The translations under genes were made by a program, and so were the position numbers. Positions 5,036 through 20,000 of a DNA stretch of 20,000 nt are shown here, in pieces. A model generated the notes under the pieces. That model did not search any database and had not been told where the DNA came from. It was given only the letters and a program-made list of their open reading frames with translations. Each line of letters begins with the position of its first letter. Within the stretch, counting starts at the first letter, position 1. Location of the stretch: positions 51,834 to 71,833 of the IMG/VR virus record IMGVR_UViG_3300033463_000096, one strand, 5' to 3'. Source of the DNA: an uncultured virus (IMG/VR IMGVR_UViG_3300033463_000096). Lineage: Duplodnaviria > Heunggongvirae > Uroviricota > Caudoviricetes.

Positions 5036-5467
5036 TTAGAGATCGTCTTCTAGGTCGAGATCAGACAAATCGTCTTCTTCTCCACCTTCAAGATCGTCTT
5101 CACCAGCGAGGTCATCTTCTTCCGGTTCAATGACGTTCAAATGAGCGCCGCAAACTGGGCAGACACCTTCTTCTGGGTCAAAGTCAAATTCTGCTTCGTC
5201 AATGGCAACTTCACCTGTTCCGCCGCAAGTTGGGCATTCGGTTTCGTTTCCATCTTCGTCTGTGATAACGCCGGTTCCGCCGCAGTCCGGACAAGGAACC
5301 ATTTCAGGTTCTTCACCTTCTTCTGCGCCATCTTCAGCTGGTTCATCTGTAGGAAGATCTTCAGCACCTGCGTCTTCAGCCGGTAGCGGAAGTTCATCAT
5401 CTTCCACAGCTTCATTCATGAAACGGCAAGCACGCTTGCACTGTTCAAGGAATAATTTATCGTTCAT
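5036..5467 (-). CDS. Highly acidic protein with DnaJ-type CxxCxGxG zinc finger
   Basis: CPDCGGTG and CPTCGGTG plus CPVCG, embedded in D/E-rich tracts. GGAG RBS upstream. Confidence 0.8.
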   Translation of the reverse strand: MNDKLFLEQCKRACRFMNEAVEDDELPLPAEDAGAEDLPTDEPAEDGAEEGEEPEMVPCPDCGGTGVITDEDGNETECPTCGGTGEVAIDEAEFDFDPEEGVCPVCGAHLNVIEPEEDDLAGEDDLEGGEEDDLSDLDLEDDL

Positions 5468-5503: not shown

Positions 5504-6208
5504 TTATTTTGCATACATTTTAAGTGCATCATAAATCTCATTCTGCACATATTCAATGTTGACATCAAATCCTTCAGTTTTCAACTCGCTTTGTAATGCG
5601 GTTGCAGCGCGTTTGACGGCGGCCTTTAGGCTGTCAGATAGATAATCAAATCTTTCAAGATATTCTTGAGAAGGGCGGTTATTGACCGTTAAATCTGGCA
5701 CATTGTCGCTGATTTCACGAGCATATATTTCCTGTGCCACTGAATATACCTTATCAAGCAAGTATTCAGACAACTTGTTTTCATCTAGCTTGACGCTTTC
5801 TGAAAAGCGTGGTGTCGGACGCTTAAATGAACCCAGATAGCGAACATCTTTGACGATGTCATTTAGAAGTTCTTTTAGGTTAACGTAATTCTTATCATTG
5901 TAAATGAATATGGTTCCGCCAGTGCTGCCCTTAATACCTTCATAATATCCATCAGCTTCAACTCGCTGTAAAGCAGGCTTAATCTTTACCTTGACAGTAT
6001 TCTTGCCATGATAAACATATACGATGTTGCCCGCAGCAACATTACATGACCAGCCATCACGACCACCAAAGTCAGGGTCAAATTTCTTATATAATGCGTC
6101 TACGATATCTTGAGCAGTGAACTTTTTCCAGTTATCAGGAGTACCCATCCAATGTTCAGCAACAAGACCTGCACCTTCAAGTGTTTTTAATGCTTCATCC
6201 AATTCCAT
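5504..6208 (-). CDS. Hypothetical protein with shared leader MELDEALKTLEGAGLVAE (putative head-internal protein)
   Basis: 234 aa ORF. The N-terminal leader is shared with the segments starting at 6825, 8572 and 9341. Confidence 0.75.
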   Translation of the reverse strand: MELDEALKTLEGAGLVAEHWMGTPDNWKKFTAQDIVDALYKKFDPDFGGRDGWSCNVAAGNIVYVYHGKNTVKVKIKPALQRVEADGYYEGIKGSTGGTIFIYNDKNYVNLKELLNDIVKDVRYLGSFKRPTPRFSESVKLDENKLSEYLLDKVYSVAQEIYAREISDNVPDLTVNNRPSQEYLERFDYLSDSLKAAVKRAATALQSELKTEGFDVNIEYVQNEIYDALKMYAK

Positions 6209-6828
6209 TATTTACCCCTTACTTCTGCAATAATTTCATCAACGAAAGCAATGATGTCTTCTTCGTCAAGTACCTTCTTGAAGCTCTTCTTGCGTCCACC
6301 AAATTCAGCCCAGCCGTCAACCACAAATTTTCCGGTATATCTACTAAAGGTATCTCTAGGCATAAATGCTATTGCTTTATCTGTTTCAGCATAAGGTGTT
6401 TCTTGCTGTTCAGGTGTCACATACCAGTCAATTCTCCAACCGCCACGGCCAATATCAGGTCCGCAGGCAAACTTAATCCTATGATAGTTTTGAGCAGGAG
6501 CATTATGAGCACCAGAAACAGGATTATAATATCCATCATCGTAGCTCCAGATGTCAACCTTATACTTCTTCTCGATATGCTTTATCATTTCTTCAACTAC
6601 AGGCACGGCACTTTTACGAAGACGAATTGCTTCTTGGTCATACTTGTCTCTGACATACTTGTTATTTCCACCGTATGCCTTTAAGTTAAGACGAAAGTCA
6701 ACCTGTTTCTTCTGTTCTGGTGTTGTAGCGCCATACTTAGCATAAGCTCTTTCACGGTTGGCGTCTATTGCTTCAGCAATCAATCCTGCTTTCTGCAATG
6801 CATCTAATGCTTCGTTTAATTCCATCAC
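6208..6828 (-). CDS. Hypothetical protein with shared leader MELNEALDALQKAGLIAE (putative head-internal protein)
   Basis: 206 aa ORF, ATGA-coupled to the gp53-like gene, carrying the shared leader. Confidence 0.75.
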   Translation of the reverse strand: MMELNEALDALQKAGLIAEAIDANRERAYAKYGATTPEQKKQVDFRLNLKAYGGNNKYVRDKYDQEAIRLRKSAVPVVEEMIKHIEKKYKVDIWSYDDGYYNPVSGAHNAPAQNYHRIKFACGPDIGRGGWRIDWYVTPEQQETPYAETDKAIAFMPRDTFSRYTGKFVVDGWAEFGGRKKSFKKVLDEEDIIAFVDEIIAEVRGK

Positions 6829-7145
6829 TTATCCTTCTTCCTGTAAATCTTCATCGCTTCACGAGCGATGTTGATGTCTGGATATTTCAAAATCATCTGT
6901 GGGCGAATGTCGTTCCATACATCTGAAATGCCGTTGAACCACATTAGGAACCACCAGTAGTTAGTGGTTCCATAAATGAGCTTTGAAATACGGTCAGGTC
7001 TACCAACATCGTATTCTGAACACTTATACCATTTTACAGGACCAAAGTCAAAATCACCAAAATCCATTGAACCCAAATCCTTTTCAACGATTTGGTCAAC
7101 GGTGTTGGTCTGCAGGAAATTGGTTCTGTATGTCAGGTTTTCCAT
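6825..7145 (-). CDS. Baseplate wedge protein, gp53-like (LysM-like fold)
   Basis: RPDRISKLIYGTTNYWWFLMWFNGISDVW...LKYP matches the gp53 pattern RPD.IS..LYG....WW.....N.I.D. Confidence 0.75.
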   Translation of the reverse strand: MENLTYRTNFLQTNTVDQIVEKDLGSMDFGDFDFGPVKWYKCSEYDVGRPDRISKLIYGTTNYWWFLMWFNGISDVWNDIRPQMILKYPDINIAREAMKIYRKKDK

Positions 7146-7148
7146 ATT

Positions 7149-7265
7149 TTATTTATTCTTTATCTGTTTCAATTCATTTTGGAATTCATAGATGTGTCCA
7201 ATTGGCGCAGTAATGATCTTGCCCCAATCGTCTTTCACGGTAATCTTCTGGTCACCTGTCAGACA
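7149..7265 (-). mobile_element. Atypically short N-terminal split-intein fragment (38 aa)
   Basis: Intein block A-like C-L-T-G-D-x-x-I-x-V followed by x-I-x-x-(L/I)-Y, starting right after FNQEYA and ending at a stop 38 codons later. Confidence 0.82.
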
Positions 7266-8051
7266 AGCATATTCCTGGTTGAAGTGCTTGATACCGTGGT
7301 CGCGGATAATCTTTTCTTTGAATTTCTCATCACGACCGTCAATCTCCCACCACTGAACCTTACAAGGAATAAAGGTATTACGCCCTAACTTTGCGTCGTT
7401 CCAGATATTATAGAAGTGGTTAAATCCTTTCGGTGTGCTAATAAGCAAAAGCATAGCGTCAGGACGAGATGCTTGAGTAGGGAACACAGAGTTCATAAAG
7501 GCATCAGCAGCTTTGTCATCAAGGTGAGCAAATTCGTCCACCAGTTCAAGGTCAACCGTCTTACCACGGATTGACGAAGAAGATGACGCTGCTGAAAATA
7601 CTCTTGTCTTGTTTTCAAGAATAAATTCTGATTGGTTCCATTTGATGATACCCTTCTGCAGCCACATTGGCAGTGAAGTATAGGCCTGCTGAATACGGAA
7701 CATAATTTCATCGGCCTGAGAAGCCTTGTTAGCCAAGATAGCGATAATCTTCGCTGGATGGAACAAAGCATACCATGTAATGTAAAGCGTAGCGATGGTT
7801 GTCTTACCAGACTGGCGACCCATCATAATGATACGGTTGTTTCGGCCAGGTACTTTGGTCGTGATAGCCTTCACCAAACGCTGCTGGTAGCCACGGAGCT
7901 TAATAGGATGAATACCGTCCGCAGCAGTGATTTCAAAGTATTTAGCGAAGTGGAAGATATTACGTTTACACTTCAAATACTCTTGCATCTGCTCGGGCGT
8001 CATCTGAACCTTTTCGCCGGCGGCTCGCAATAATTCGTTCTTCTTAAACAT
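7149..8051 (-). CDS. terL: Terminase large subunit (T4 gp17-like), N-terminal ATPase half fused to a split-intein N fragment
   Basis: Q motif LRGYQ, Walker A MGRQSGKT, Walker B LELVDEFAH, motif III ISTPKG, then FNQEYA. The nuclease domain is absent, and the ORF ends CLTGDQKITVKDDWGKIITAPIGHIYE...K-stop. Confidence 0.92.
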   Translation of the reverse strand: MFKKNELLRAAGEKVQMTPEQMQEYLKCKRNIFHFAKYFEITAADGIHPIKLRGYQQRLVKAITTKVPGRNNRIIMMGRQSGKTTIATLYITWYALFHPAKIIAILANKASQADEIMFRIQQAYTSLPMWLQKGIIKWNQSEFILENKTRVFSAASSSSSIRGKTVDLELVDEFAHLDDKAADAFMNSVFPTQASRPDAMLLLISTPKGFNHFYNIWNDAKLGRNTFIPCKVQWWEIDGRDEKFKEKIIRDHGIKHFNQEYACLTGDQKITVKDDWGKIITAPIGHIYEFQNELKQIKNK

Positions 8052-8066
8052 TATTCAACCTCTAGT

Positions 8067-8078
8067 TATTTATAAATA
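8067..8078. promoter_or_regulatory. Overlapping divergent T4 late promoters (palindrome TATTTATAAATA)
   Basis: TATAAATA on + at 8071-8078 and on - at 8067-8074, each 16-17 nt from its ATG (8095 and 8051) with a GAGG RBS on each side. Confidence 0.8.
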
Positions 8079-8094
8079 CTGTAGAGGTATTTTA

Positions 8095-9339
8095 ATGAAA
8101 GACATTGACGAAGGCTACATGGAAGGCGATTTCAACCGCTGGGACCGTAGAAAGATTGAAAAAGGTATTGCCCCGTCATGGGCAAAAAAAGTGACGATTA
8201 TGGGTCCTAGACCTAAGAAACCGCAAACAAGCTCTTCTCCATCTGAACTTGCTATGCGCCGCGTCACTGAACCGAATTATCGCCCAGCTTTTTCCGAAAC
8301 AGATTTGAAGGCAGCACGAGAAGGCGAAGAAACAATGAACGCCCGTATTGCTGACCGTATTCAGAAGGCATTTGACGAATTTCATGTCGGCTGTTCTGCT
8401 GACTGCATTTCAGTCAATACACCTACCGTAAGGTTTATGATTTATCCTTACGGCTTTGTTTATAAAGTAAAAACAATTTACAGTGCCACACGCAAAGAAA
8501 TGACTGATTGTGAATCTTTGTATGAGGTCATTGAGTTAATCAAACAAAAGAGCCAAACAGTTGGAGAATCTATGGAAATTGAACATGCATTGAAATTGCT
8601 TGAAAGCGTGGGCGCCAAGGTTTTGAAAGAAGATACCGATGATTGGGATGTTGCTGATATGCCTGCCGGCTTGACACACGCTCAGCGTCAGAAATGGGCA
8701 AAGCGCCACAACGCCGCTACCGATAAAGACTTTGAAAGACGAGCAAGAAATTGGGACCAAGTTCACAAAGCAGAAGATGAATATCAAAAGGAATTCGGTG
8801 CTGGTGAACCAATTGAATACTGGAAGGCTGAAGACGGCCAGGAAGGCCGAGTAGTTGGTTCTAAGGCTGAATACGCAAAGGCATTTAACCAGTCACCTGA
8901 AAATGACGAAAAGGTTAAAGCAATTTTTGATGGCCTAGTTGAATTGGGCTGGAAATACGTCGGAACATGGATGGGACAGGAATTGCCTAAGGGTTATGGT
9001 GACCCTGCATTTTCGTCACCTAATGAACGCTTCTTCGTGTTCAAGAAACCAGGCAAGTTCAAGACTGGATATAAGGCTGGCAAGAAAGGACACATTGAAG
9101 ACTATGTGATTGGCTTCGCTGTGCCGCCGCAATACAATAAGCCAGGACAAAAGAAATTGTCAGTCAGCTACTTTGACGCTACAAGAGATGGCGGCGGAGA
9201 CGCTTCTTCACCTAAAGAATTTGTTAAAGAAGTTGAAAGACATTACCAATTCTACATTAAGGACCACAAGAAATTCTATCGTGGTGCCGGCAAGCCGGAT
9301 TACGAAGAAATGGCAGCATTAGCTTATGAGGGCAGATAA
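8095..9339 (+). CDS. Hypothetical protein (414 aa) with an internal copy of the shared leader at Met160
   Basis: GAGG RBS and late promoter upstream. Internal GES-MEIEHALKLLESVGAKVLKEDTDD begins at 8572, with GGAG just upstream. Confidence 0.75.
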   Translation: MKDIDEGYMEGDFNRWDRRKIEKGIAPSWAKKVTIMGPRPKKPQTSSSPSELAMRRVTEPNYRPAFSETDLKAAREGEETMNARIADRIQKAFDEFHVGCSADCISVNTPTVRFMIYPYGFVYKVKTIYSATRKEMTDCESLYEVIELIKQKSQTVGESMEIEHALKLLESVGAKVLKEDTDDWDVADMPAGLTHAQRQKWAKRHNAATDKDFERRARNWDQVHKAEDEYQKEFGAGEPIEYWKAEDGQEGRVVGSKAEYAKAFNQSPENDEKVKAIFDGLVELGWKYVGTWMGQELPKGYGDPAFSSPNERFFVFKKPGKFKTGYKAGKKGHIEDYVIGFAVPPQYNKPGQKKLSVSYFDATRDGGGDASSPKEFVKEVERHYQFYIKDHKKFYRGAGKPDYEEMAALAYEGR

Positions 9340-9340
9340 A

Positions 9341-9922
9341 ATGAAATTAGACGAAGCATTGGATAAATTAAGAGCAGCAGGTGCTCAATTTATTAAAGAA
9401 GACACCGACACCCACGATGATGAAGAGTTTCCTCTTAATCTGAGAAGACATAACATTTTCAAGGGCGCCAGAGACAGAGCATTGACAGACAAGGAAGATA
9501 AAGAAGTTGATGCTATTGATAGAAAGCTGAGCAAGATACCGGACCACGACAGCGTCTGGCGGAAAAAGATAAATGCAGGTATCTGGGCTATCAAGCTAGT
9601 TGTTTCAACTGATGCGTATGACGAAGAAAAAGACGAATACGTTGATGACTATACGCTTGGCTATCTTAAGCCGGATGGCACAGTCGCTAAAACATACGGT
9701 AATGACTGTATGTTGAATTATCGTCAGTGTCAAGACTTGATGGACAAATATGCAAGATACAATGACGGACCAGCAAAGCCCGGATTTGAAAAGGCATTGA
9801 AACAGAAGTTCAAGATTACCGATAAAAAGGCAACAATCTTCTTGTCACCGGGAACCATCAAGCGCGGTAAGTTCCATCTGTTCAACATGGATGACAACTG
9901 GGCAGATGCAGAAGACATTTAA
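9341..9922 (+). CDS. Hypothetical protein with shared leader MKLDEALDKLRAAGAQFIKE (putative head-internal protein)
   Basis: Start re-assigned from 9326 to ATG 9341, which follows the upstream stop and begins the shared leader. Confidence 0.75.
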   Translation: MKLDEALDKLRAAGAQFIKEDTDTHDDEEFPLNLRRHNIFKGARDRALTDKEDKEVDAIDRKLSKIPDHDSVWRKKINAGIWAIKLVVSTDAYDEEKDEYVDDYTLGYLKPDGTVAKTYGNDCMLNYRQCQDLMDKYARYNDGPAKPGFEKALKQKFKITDKKATIFLSPGTIKRGKFHLFNMDDNWADAEDI

Positions 9923-17987: not shown

Positions 17988-20000
17988 TTAAATGTTGTGC
18001 CTATCTCTCAATTCAGCAAGCTTACCATCATTCCATGATTTGGTAATTGACTTTCTTGGAGAACCGGTCAAGTAGCCTGTGATACGGCGAACACGAACGA
18101 ACTTATCTTCATTCTTGCAACCGCACTTAGGGCAAGCATCGTTGATGATGCCGTGGAAACCACATTCTAGACAGTCATCTGAGTCCATAGTGACAGTGAA
18201 GTAGCCAAGGTCGGCGTCATACATCGCATCAATCACGTGTTTAACGGCGTCAATGTTCTTGCTGAGGTCACCATTCAGTTTGTAGTAGAAAATGTGTCCA
18301 GCATTCGTTAACTTGTGGAATGGAGCCTCTGTCTTGAGCTTGTTCACGAGTGATGTATTGACTGAATAATCAATCATATGCGAGTTCGTGTAATAGCCCT
18401 TGCCAAAGATACGATACAAATCCACATCCTTTAGCTTTTTCTCATTTTCAAACTTGTTCTTGTCAATGTTTGCGAATCTGCCTGCGACTGCTTCTGCAGG
18501 TGTTGCGAAACAAGACCAGTTCAAGTGAGTTTCCTTCTGCTGTTCATCACAGAACTTACGAATCGTCTTAACGATGCTCAAAGCGAAATCGTCAATGTCG
18601 TGGTCAACGCCCCATGTCTTACCAGTGATGAGTGTCACCACTTCCGCAATGCCCACATAACCAATTGACAAAGATCCCTGGCGGAATACTTCCCCGACCG
18701 TGTCAGTGACATCGTGCGGTTCATCATCAGATGTGAGATACAGACCTTGCTGCATTGTGAATGGGTAAGATTCGTATGTTTTCTTTGAAATGAGAGCGAA
18801 CCTATCAAGGAGGCTTCCTTTAACATCTTGAAGAATGTTCTGAAGCTTTTCAAAGAAGATTGCTTTTCTTTCTTCAACCGTATCAGCAGCCATGTGCGCT
18901 TCAATAGCCAAGCGCGGAAGGTTGATGGTGTGGAATGCAAGGTTTCCACGGCCGGTTGTTTGTTCAGCGCCATTGATGTTGCCCAAAACACGAGTGCGGC
19001 AACCCATCGTTGAAACAGTGGTGTTCTCAATGAGCTTTCTCAATTTCAACATGCCGTTCTCAATAGCGGCAATTTCCCAGTACTCACCAGTACCAACTTC
19101 AAATTCATATTTAGGCTGGTCAAAGACAACATCTTCATTTACGAATACTTGTTCAACTTCGTCCCTACCTCTCACCTTTAATTCAAGTGAAAGCACGCCC
19201 TTGACATCAATGATCTTTTCACGATACTTGACATACGGAGCGTTGAATGACGAGTCAACACGAACAAAGTTCGGATAGAAGCGTCTTGCCAAACATTCAA
19301 GCGACCTCTGATACAAGTCATAGTTAGGATCTTCAGGGTTCTTGGTATATCCCTTCATCAACTTGAAAATCAAAATCGGGAAGATTGCTGTCAAGCCATC
19401 ACCCAAGCCTTCCATCTGTGAACGGATAAGGTTAGCCGAAACCATTCGTCCGCAATTTGATGTATCAAGACCAAAGTTCAGTGATGAGAACGGAACCTGG
19501 TTGCCTGAACGTGACTGTAGTGAGTTCAAGTTGCCGATTAGGCCTTCCATAGCCTGATGGGTATCATCGTCTGTTTTCTTGATAGCCTTTTCAACACACT
19601 TATGAGGGAAGAGCATGTTTAGGCGTTCAACTGGCTGGTTCATGGAAACAGTCTTCAAGAGCTTATCCATATCACCGGCGCATGCAGGCGAGCCGCTATA
19701 TTCTTCGTAGCGGATTAACTCAGTTTTAAGGTTTTTCTTGAATGATAAATCTACAAACGGTGCAAGGTCAAAGTCAATGTTGTCGTCGGCAATACCGCCG
19801 AACTGCTGATTTGACTGCAACTGCAAAATCACTGCTGTCAAGGCTGCTGCTGTTTGAATTGACTGCGGTGCACGAAGGAAGCCGGTACCTGAGTCAAAGC
19901 CATGTCTAAGCAATTTGCCTACTGGAGCAAACAAGCAGTTGAATGTAAGGTTATACTGGTTCAAGTCATGAATATGAATTGCTCCGTCCTTATGTTCAAT
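17988..20000 (-). CDS. nrdD: Anaerobic (class III) ribonucleoside-triphosphate reductase, 5' end outside the window
   Basis: The frame is open to the window edge (..EHKDGAIHIHDLNQY..). Motifs TFNC, SRSGNQVPFSSLNFG, MGCRT, GRGNL..TINLPR, TPAE, YYTNS, zinc ribbon CLECG..CPKCG and glycyl-radical motif RRITGYL. Confidence 0.96.
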   Translation of the reverse strand: MEHKDGAIHIHDLNQYNLTFNCLFAPVGKLLRHGFDSGTGFLRAPQSIQTAAALTAVILQLQSNQQFGGIADDNIDFDLAPFVDLSFKKNLKTELIRYEEYSGSPACAGDMDKLLKTVSMNQPVERLNMLFPHKCVEKAIKKTDDDTHQAMEGLIGNLNSLQSRSGNQVPFSSLNFGLDTSNCGRMVSANLIRSQMEGLGDGLTAIFPILIFKLMKGYTKNPEDPNYDLYQRSLECLARRFYPNFVRVDSSFNAPYVKYREKIIDVKGVLSLELKVRGRDEVEQVFVNEDVVFDQPKYEFEVGTGEYWEIAAIENGMLKLRKLIENTTVSTMGCRTRVLGNINGAEQTTGRGNLAFHTINLPRLAIEAHMAADTVEERKAIFFEKLQNILQDVKGSLLDRFALISKKTYESYPFTMQQGLYLTSDDEPHDVTDTVGEVFRQGSLSIGYVGIAEVVTLITGKTWGVDHDIDDFALSIVKTIRKFCDEQQKETHLNWSCFATPAEAVAGRFANIDKNKFENEKKLKDVDLYRIFGKGYYTNSHMIDYSVNTSLVNKLKTEAPFHKLTNAGHIFYYKLNGDLSKNIDAVKHVIDAMYDADLGYFTVTMDSDDCLECGFHGIINDACPKCGCKNEDKFVRVRRITGYLTGSPRKSITKSWNDGKLAELRDRHNI

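Follow-up and report, generated by a model that had tools for sequence, protein, structure and literature searches.

Two unlinked genes of a large gut phage encode the halves of a terminase that are most likely joined by an atypically split intein

Terminase genes and their surroundings

The window analysed here is a stretch of 20,000 nucleotides, which corresponds to G000:C1:51834-71833 of an IMG/VR virus record of 71,833 bp. This record is about 16% complete according to CheckV. The minus strand of the window contains a gene for the ATPase half of a terminase (TerL), which is followed in frame by an N-terminal intein fragment (IntN). The features of this gene and of its immediate surroundings are as follows.

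7149-8051, minus strand: ATPase-IntN ORF of 300 aa, of which residues 1-262 end in FNQEYA.
7266..8051, minus strand: N-extein, TerL ATPase domain, residues 1-262, assigned by Terminase_6N, 3ezk_A and BLASTP to three contiguous TerLs.
7152..7265, minus strand: IntN, 38 aa from Cys263 to Lys300, block A only, assigned by the alignment of IntN tails.
7149..7151, minus strand: TAA stop codon closing the IntN fragment, read from the sequence and spanned without indels by contigs of another study.
6825..7145, minus strand: downstream gene, 106 aa, weakly baseplate-wedge-like, starting 4 nt past the TAA.
8059..8063, minus strand: AGAGG, putative RBS-like sequence, 7 nt before the ATG.
8067..8074, minus strand: TATAAATA, putative late-promoter box of the T4 type, located 16 nt before the ATPase-IntN start.
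8067-8078, both strands: palindrome TATTTATAAATA, which places the box on each strand, between the ATPase-IntN gene and a divergent 414-aa ORF at 8095.

The ATPase body matches Pfam Terminase_6N with an E value of 4.7e-16, the T4 gp17 chain 3ezk_A with that of 1.3e-35 and phrog_5989 with that of 2.4e-44. Its Walker A (GRQSGKTT), Walker B (LELVDE) and STP (ISTPKG) motifs are aligned to their gp17 counterparts in the 3ezk_A alignment. When cultured phages were searched by tblastn, 2,595 records were matched, and the alignment ends at residue 263 in all of the 25 rows listed. This result indicates that the 38-aa tail is an addition to a conserved TerL. A preliminary description of this DNA stated that a gp17-like ORF with the ATPase motifs reaches FNQEYA, switches to another sequence and stops. 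This is confirmed, because the 262 aa are followed by a Cys-led tail of 38 aa, CLTGDQKITVKDDWGKIITAPIGHIYEFQNELKQIKNK (residues 263-300), and then by the TAA at 7149-7151. The same description reported that neither a C-intein nor a nuclease half is found in the window, and postulated that the nuclease half is encoded elsewhere behind a long C-intein. Both statements hold. The C-terminal intein fragment (IntC) and the nuclease half are encoded by one ORF on the same contig, outside the window, as follows.

G000:C1:5396-6538, plus strand: IntC-nuclease ORF, 380 aa, with Terminase_6C inside.
G000:C1:5396-5764, plus strand: IntC, 123 aa, ending in NGVINHN.
C1:5765-6535, plus strand: nuclease C-extein, 257 aa, starting at Cys124.

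Terminase_6C occurs only once on the contig (C1:5903-6370, plus strand), and the contig holds only one IntC-like match. IntC residues 1-123 are followed by Cys124, by AFGGSTSTLIS and by the nuclease domain. The T4 gp17 alignment of the C-half starts exactly at the IntC/Cys124 junction, and the D, E and D positions of the RNase H-like site of the nuclease, which we take to be the catalytic triad, align with identical gp17 residues. The ORF has an AGGAG box before its ATG, and just four sense codons lie between the upstream stop and this ATG.

The TATAAATA box is present in 17 copies on the contig, as compared with 2.2 expected, and 15 of these 17 copies lie 9-58 nt upstream of the start of a gene on the same strand. 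A gene for a gp55-like late sigma factor is located at C1:8647-9303. These boxes look like a T4-type late promoter set. Unlike the ATPase gene, the IntC gene has no TATAAATA box in the 480-bp spacer upstream of it, and a scan for sigma-70-like promoters and terminators around the IntC gene gave results at chance level. This non-coding spacer contains the direct repeat AAGATAGCAACAAAAA twice, at C1:5217-5232 and 5248-5263 (815-830 and 846-861 of locus L001).

The protein encoded at 6825-7145 matches the PHROG baseplate-wedge families with E values of 2.3e-4 and 4.6e-4, and Pfam Phage_gp53 with that of 0.025, which is below the cut-off. Thus, the gp53-like nature previously assigned to this gene is retained only as a weak likeness to baseplate-wedge proteins, because the match to the gp53 family itself falls short. 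Neither an endonuclease gene nor IntC is present at 6825-7145. A motif, M-E/K-L-D/N-E-A-L-x-x-L-x-x-A-G, is common to six ORFs, and is N-terminal in five of them and internal in the 414-aa ORF. It is located at 6167-6205 (minus), 6784-6822 (minus), 8575-8613 (plus) and 9344-9382 (plus) in the window, and at C1:6587-6625 (plus) and C1:39761-39799 (minus) on the contig. Several of these six ORFs adjoin the terminase halves, and they have no Pfam or PHROG family. Elsewhere in the window, 17988-19964 (minus) encodes an NrdD-like anaerobic ribonucleotide reductase of 658 aa (phrog_487, 2e-138), in which the best match begins at residue 315.

Intein fragments and extein junction

The first residue of a class-1 intein is represented by Cys263, which directly follows FNQEYA. 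The T/S-x-x-H motif of block B is represented by S43-N-D-H46 of IntC, and the C-terminal residues of an intein by H122-N123, followed by C124 at position +1. The intein is split between blocks A and B, such that IntN contains block A and IntC contains blocks B, F and G. F9, H46, Y103, V108, H122, N123 and C124 are invariant among 10 IntC-like IMG/VR sequences, and the pattern across 10 relatives consists of S/T-x-x-H in block B, of block F, and of HN in block G followed by Cys+1.

A profile constructed from the window phage's IntC and nine relatives (A1) was compared with PDB. It matches 6dsl_B, 'Consensus engineered intein CatC', over the whole length with an E value of 1.1e-21, and the next matches are gp41-1 (2.6e-10), VidaL (3.6e-7) and other inteins. 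In this match, the first residue of IntC is paired with the residue at which the intein of CatC begins, and this result points to the same split point. Pfam Intein_splicing (PF14890) matches 15 of the 17 aligned IntC relatives, and misses the window phage's copy and L003. The Pfam intein families do not match the IntC or IntN of the window's phage even at E <= 10, the NCBIfam search gives nothing relevant, and the phmmer search of PDB with the single IntC sequence gives no intein. An IntN profile (A2) has no meaningful match in PDB. The 38-aa tail aligns with IntN tails present at the same TerL site in L008, L010, L015 and L012. In addition, TerL of Vibrio phage vB_VmeM-32 contains a contiguous mini-intein, which extends from C209 to N351 and is followed by C352. 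The start of this mini-intein matches IntN (E value of 0.005) and its end matches IntC (2e-9). The Hint similarity expected for the tail is therefore recovered in its alignments with the same-site tails and with the start of the vB_VmeM-32 intein, but not as a match to any Pfam intein HMM.

The structure of IntC was predicted by AF2 for IntC alone, not for the assembled pair, with a pLDDT of 84.8. When this model was used for a Foldseek search, 32 PDB matches were obtained at E <= 0.001. Among the matches listed, all are inteins or Hedgehog/BIL HINT domains, the top ones are inteins, and 6dsl_B is matched with 25% identity. The AF2 model of the whole ATPase-IntN protein, which was built from an 8-row alignment, has a pLDDT of 49.3 and is too low for use. 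The complex of IntN and IntC was predicted from alignments that we supplied. The ipSAE value is 0.42 (0.42, 0.42 and 0.61 in the individual runs), as compared with 0.00 for the best of three controls. This value lends weak support to binding of the two fragments, and may reflect mere likeness to 6DSL, a solved complex of the same kind. The ipSAE mark is reached by 116 of 157 solved complexes and by 2 of 215 mismatches, and at a value of 0.60 or lower it is reached by only 18 of those 157 solved complexes together with both passing mismatches. At least 79% of the contacts agree among the runs, and the pLDDT of the partner is at least 66. Judging from these motif, profile and fold comparisons, the pair is a member of the family of atypically split TerL inteins that contains GOS-TerL, AceL-TerL and Cat.

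To locate the junction of the exteins, each half was compared by BLASTP with three intein-free TerLs (L072, L080 and L084). The N-half alignment ends on a native Cys in all three proteins. In L080 and L084, this Cys is also the first residue of the C-half alignment, with neither a gap nor an overlap. In L072, the local alignment of the C-half runs back into IntC, yet it pairs C124 with the native Cys. The two alignments share this native Cys, indicating that the exteins meet without loss or duplication. The size of the ligated TerL is predicted to be 519 aa (262 + 257).

These results suggest that TerL is made from two unlinked genes and that its halves are most likely joined post-translationally by the split intein. 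The two proteins would be co-expressed. The short IntN would dock into the near-complete IntC, and the HINT fold would be completed in this way. Cys1 would then form a thioester, the ATPase would be transferred to Cys+1, and cyclisation of Asn123 would free the intein. A peptide bond would finally form between the exteins to generate the 519-aa TerL.

Alternatively, the intein fragments may bind to each other but no longer splice, in which case the terminase would be a non-covalent ATPase-nuclease heterodimer held by a dead intein. Splicing of the pair is predicted from its sequence, and the sequence of the window phage's copy has diverged beyond the reach of the Pfam intein HMMs. In block F, this copy has Thr in place of the Asp that is present in 6 of the 10 aligned relatives. 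In L109 and L111 (records G008 and G011), IntC ends in N-Y-N before Cys+1, and this replacement of the penultimate His by Tyr hints at relaxed chemistry in the clade. However, the window's pair retains Cys1, the block B His, the terminal Asn and Cys+1. H46, N123 and C124 are invariant in all 17 aligned IntCs, and Cys263, which is Cys1 of the intein, is invariant in all eight orthologues. Conservation of these catalytic residues argues against a module used only for docking, because such a module would not need them. Loss of splicing is therefore considered to be unlikely.

Arrangement and conservation of the split gene

The two halves of the terminase are separated by 52.4 kb on the contig of the window's phage (G000), and are located on opposite strands in a convergent orientation. 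This arrangement agrees with the earlier proposal that the packaging motor is built from two unlinked genes. The halves flank the structural module, which contains the genes for the portal, major head protein, scaffold, tail tube and baseplate. Both halves are present in five records, namely G001 and four of the ten further records searched. They are adjacent in none of these five records, and the spacing between them ranges from 45 to 129 kb. The halves are on opposite strands in G001 and G008 (about 52 kb), G011 (50 kb) and G010 (45 kb), and on the same strand in G009 (129 kb). G009 is 243,336 bp in length, has terminal repeats and is 100% complete according to CheckV. It gives one Terminase_6N match and one Terminase_6C match, indicating that the split TerL is its only TerL. 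By analogy with G009, the split TerL would be the sole TerL also in the window's phage.

The distribution of the break was examined for the best 80 of 244 IMG/VR relatives. These loci are classified as follows.

40 of the best 80: loci whose ORF stops after an IntN tail of 28-59 aa.
19 of the best 80: loci contiguous by the motif rule.
13 of the best 80: full-length ORFs of 535-612 aa without our motif pattern.
2 of the best 80: ORFs running off the locus.
6 of the best 80: short or broken ORFs.

The seven orthologue clusters (293-308 aa) all terminate in an IntN tail, in which the first approximately 24 intein residues are conserved and the remainder is variable. In L066, L069, L070, L078 and L088, the TerL reading frame is interrupted at the Walker A region or immediately upstream of it, and the resulting ORFs are 48-110 aa in length. 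These breaks could be due to a frameshift, to an additional split or to an error in assembly.

It might be supposed that the split gene is decaying or misassembled, and that a separate intact TerL, encoded in a region of the genome that has yet to be sequenced, is the functional one, given that the available sequence covers from about 16% (G000) to 37% (G001) of the genome. However, the arrangement is identical in a second record, G001 (139,105 bp, about 37% complete), in which both genes are 100% identical to those of G000 and have the same spacing, although this record is perhaps not an independent sample. The window stretch is present in bovine gut metagenome runs, and contigs from another study cross the stop and the next gene without a single indel (X5 record 16, 6731-8300; X4 record 11, 6903-7754). 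Twelve of the 13 nucleotide substitutions in the ORF in other samples are synonymous, including both of those within IntN. The same break is kept in half of the 80 loci surveyed, and the complete relative G009 has no ATPase or nuclease match other than those of its split TerL. The break is therefore genuine, and the misassembly that the preliminary description had proposed to check for is not seen. It is highly unlikely that the gene is a decaying or artefactual one backed by an intact TerL. A joint skipping 7370-7725 is present in one contig of run X3, with a side of 21 letters, and is taken as a metagenome artefact.

Finally, it is scarcely credible that the tail is an ordinary lineage-specific C-terminal extension, the first 123 aa of the nuclease protein an unrelated beta-rich domain, and the two proteins independent of each other, because, although IntN alone is too short for significant database matches, the IntC family profile matches CatC (1.1e-21), the fold search gives inteins, both parts are joined in one contiguous TerL intein and the exteins abut at one shared residue of intein-free TerLs. 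Trans-splicing of a TerL encoded by two unlinked genes is thus preferred.

Origin of the split and comparison with known systems

Endonuclease-like modules are found at the split point in several relatives. In L010, such a module is located in frame at the split point of a contiguous TerL intein (SegE_GIY-YIG, E value of 0.0028, below the cut-off). L014 has such a module as a fusion downstream of IntN (Pfam NUMOD3, 2.7e-12). A similar extension is fused behind IntN in L017 and L019, with Pfam NUMOD3 confirmed in L014 only. At the site used by the window's phage, L010 has an ATPase-IntN gene, a free-standing 343-aa ORF and an IntC-nuclease gene in this order. The intervening 343-aa ORF matches no Pfam or NCBIfam family, and nothing significant was detected when the contig was searched with it by tblastn (best E value of 0.84). 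The genes neighbouring either terminase half of the window's phage give no endonuclease matches, and the window's pair does not have the layout of a fractured gene, in which adjacent halves flank an endonuclease ORF.

Splitting of TerL at other positions is seen in record G004 (15.9 kb; L021, L019, L015 and L011), in which TerL consists of four adjacent colinear ORFs with three atypically split inteins. The first of these inteins is at Walker A, the second immediately precedes Walker B and the third lies where the ATPase meets the nuclease, and the second IntN carries an endonuclease-like extension. Protein P0014 (377 aa) starts with IntC, continues with an extein of 8 residues, a contiguous mini-intein and the remaining ATPase sequence, and ends in IntN, and thereby has three intein elements around Walker B.

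We tentatively raise the possibility that the atypical split point between blocks A and B is a further site, apart from the canonical one, at which homing endonucleases enter the HINT fold. According to this speculative scheme, the window's pair would represent an end state, from which the endonuclease has been lost. A single inversion with a breakpoint at the split, between the two halves, would place them at both ends of the 52-kb block of structural genes in a convergent orientation. The separated arrangement would then have been stable across a clade of gut phages with genomes of 240 kb or more. Two questions are raised by these findings, namely whether the phage, by keeping the halves apart, can control when or how much nuclease-competent terminase appears, and how the invasion of endonucleases influences the sites at which inteins break.

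The cyanobacterial DnaE split intein provides a precedent, in which the two parts of an essential enzyme are encoded far apart and are joined by trans-splicing, as is proposed for the window's TerL. Unlike the phage pair, DnaE is a cellular gene with a canonical split, which gives a long IntN and a short IntC. A literature search, outside the reach of which lie Thiel 2014, Bachmann & Mootz 2015 and Stevens 2017, gave no paper on unlinked TerL halves in large or jumbo phages.

According to Dassa et al. 2009 (PMC2677866), the GOS terminase contains a split intein with an unusual fracture point, the C part of which has 122 residues and lacks only motif N1, and fractured genes consist of neighbouring halves that are separated by an endonuclease gene. 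A 2025 review gives the fragment sizes as 37/115 aa for GOS-TerL, 25/104 aa for AceL-TerL and 30/104 aa for Cat, and the residues at the splice junctions as Ser1/Cys+1 for GOS-TerL and Cys1/Cys+1 for AceL-TerL and Cat.

GOS-TerL resembles the window's pair in that its host protein is a myovirus gp17-type terminase and in that its IntN is similar in size (37 aa, as compared with 38 aa here, where IntC is 123 aa). It differs from the window's pair in having Ser1/Cys+1 instead of Cys1/Cys+1. GOS-TerL was later characterised, reportedly by Bachmann & Mootz in 2015. AceL-TerL and Cat are members of the same family and share Cys1/Cys+1 with the window's pair, but their fragments are of 25/104 and 30/104 aa, whereas those of the window's pair are of 38/123 aa, with two insertions in IntC. 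CatC and the window phage's IntC are 25% identical in the structural alignment, and are not matched with each other by single-sequence phmmer. The layout reported for fractured genes is exactly that of the relative L010. In contrast, a distance of 45-129 kb separates the halves in the window's phage and in four relatives, and those of the window's phage have no endonuclease beside either of them.

By these comparisons, the pair is a new, divergent example of the atypically split TerL inteins, a type that earlier work on phage metagenomes has revealed. The two native partners of an atypically split intein from nature are thereby placed in their genomic surroundings, and the sole packaging motor of a whole clade of large gut phages would come from two unlinked genes. 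For protein engineering, the pair represents a divergent Cys1/Cys+1 intein with a peptide-sized IntN, and may be orthogonal to the existing split-intein tools, because it is only about 25% identical to Cat.
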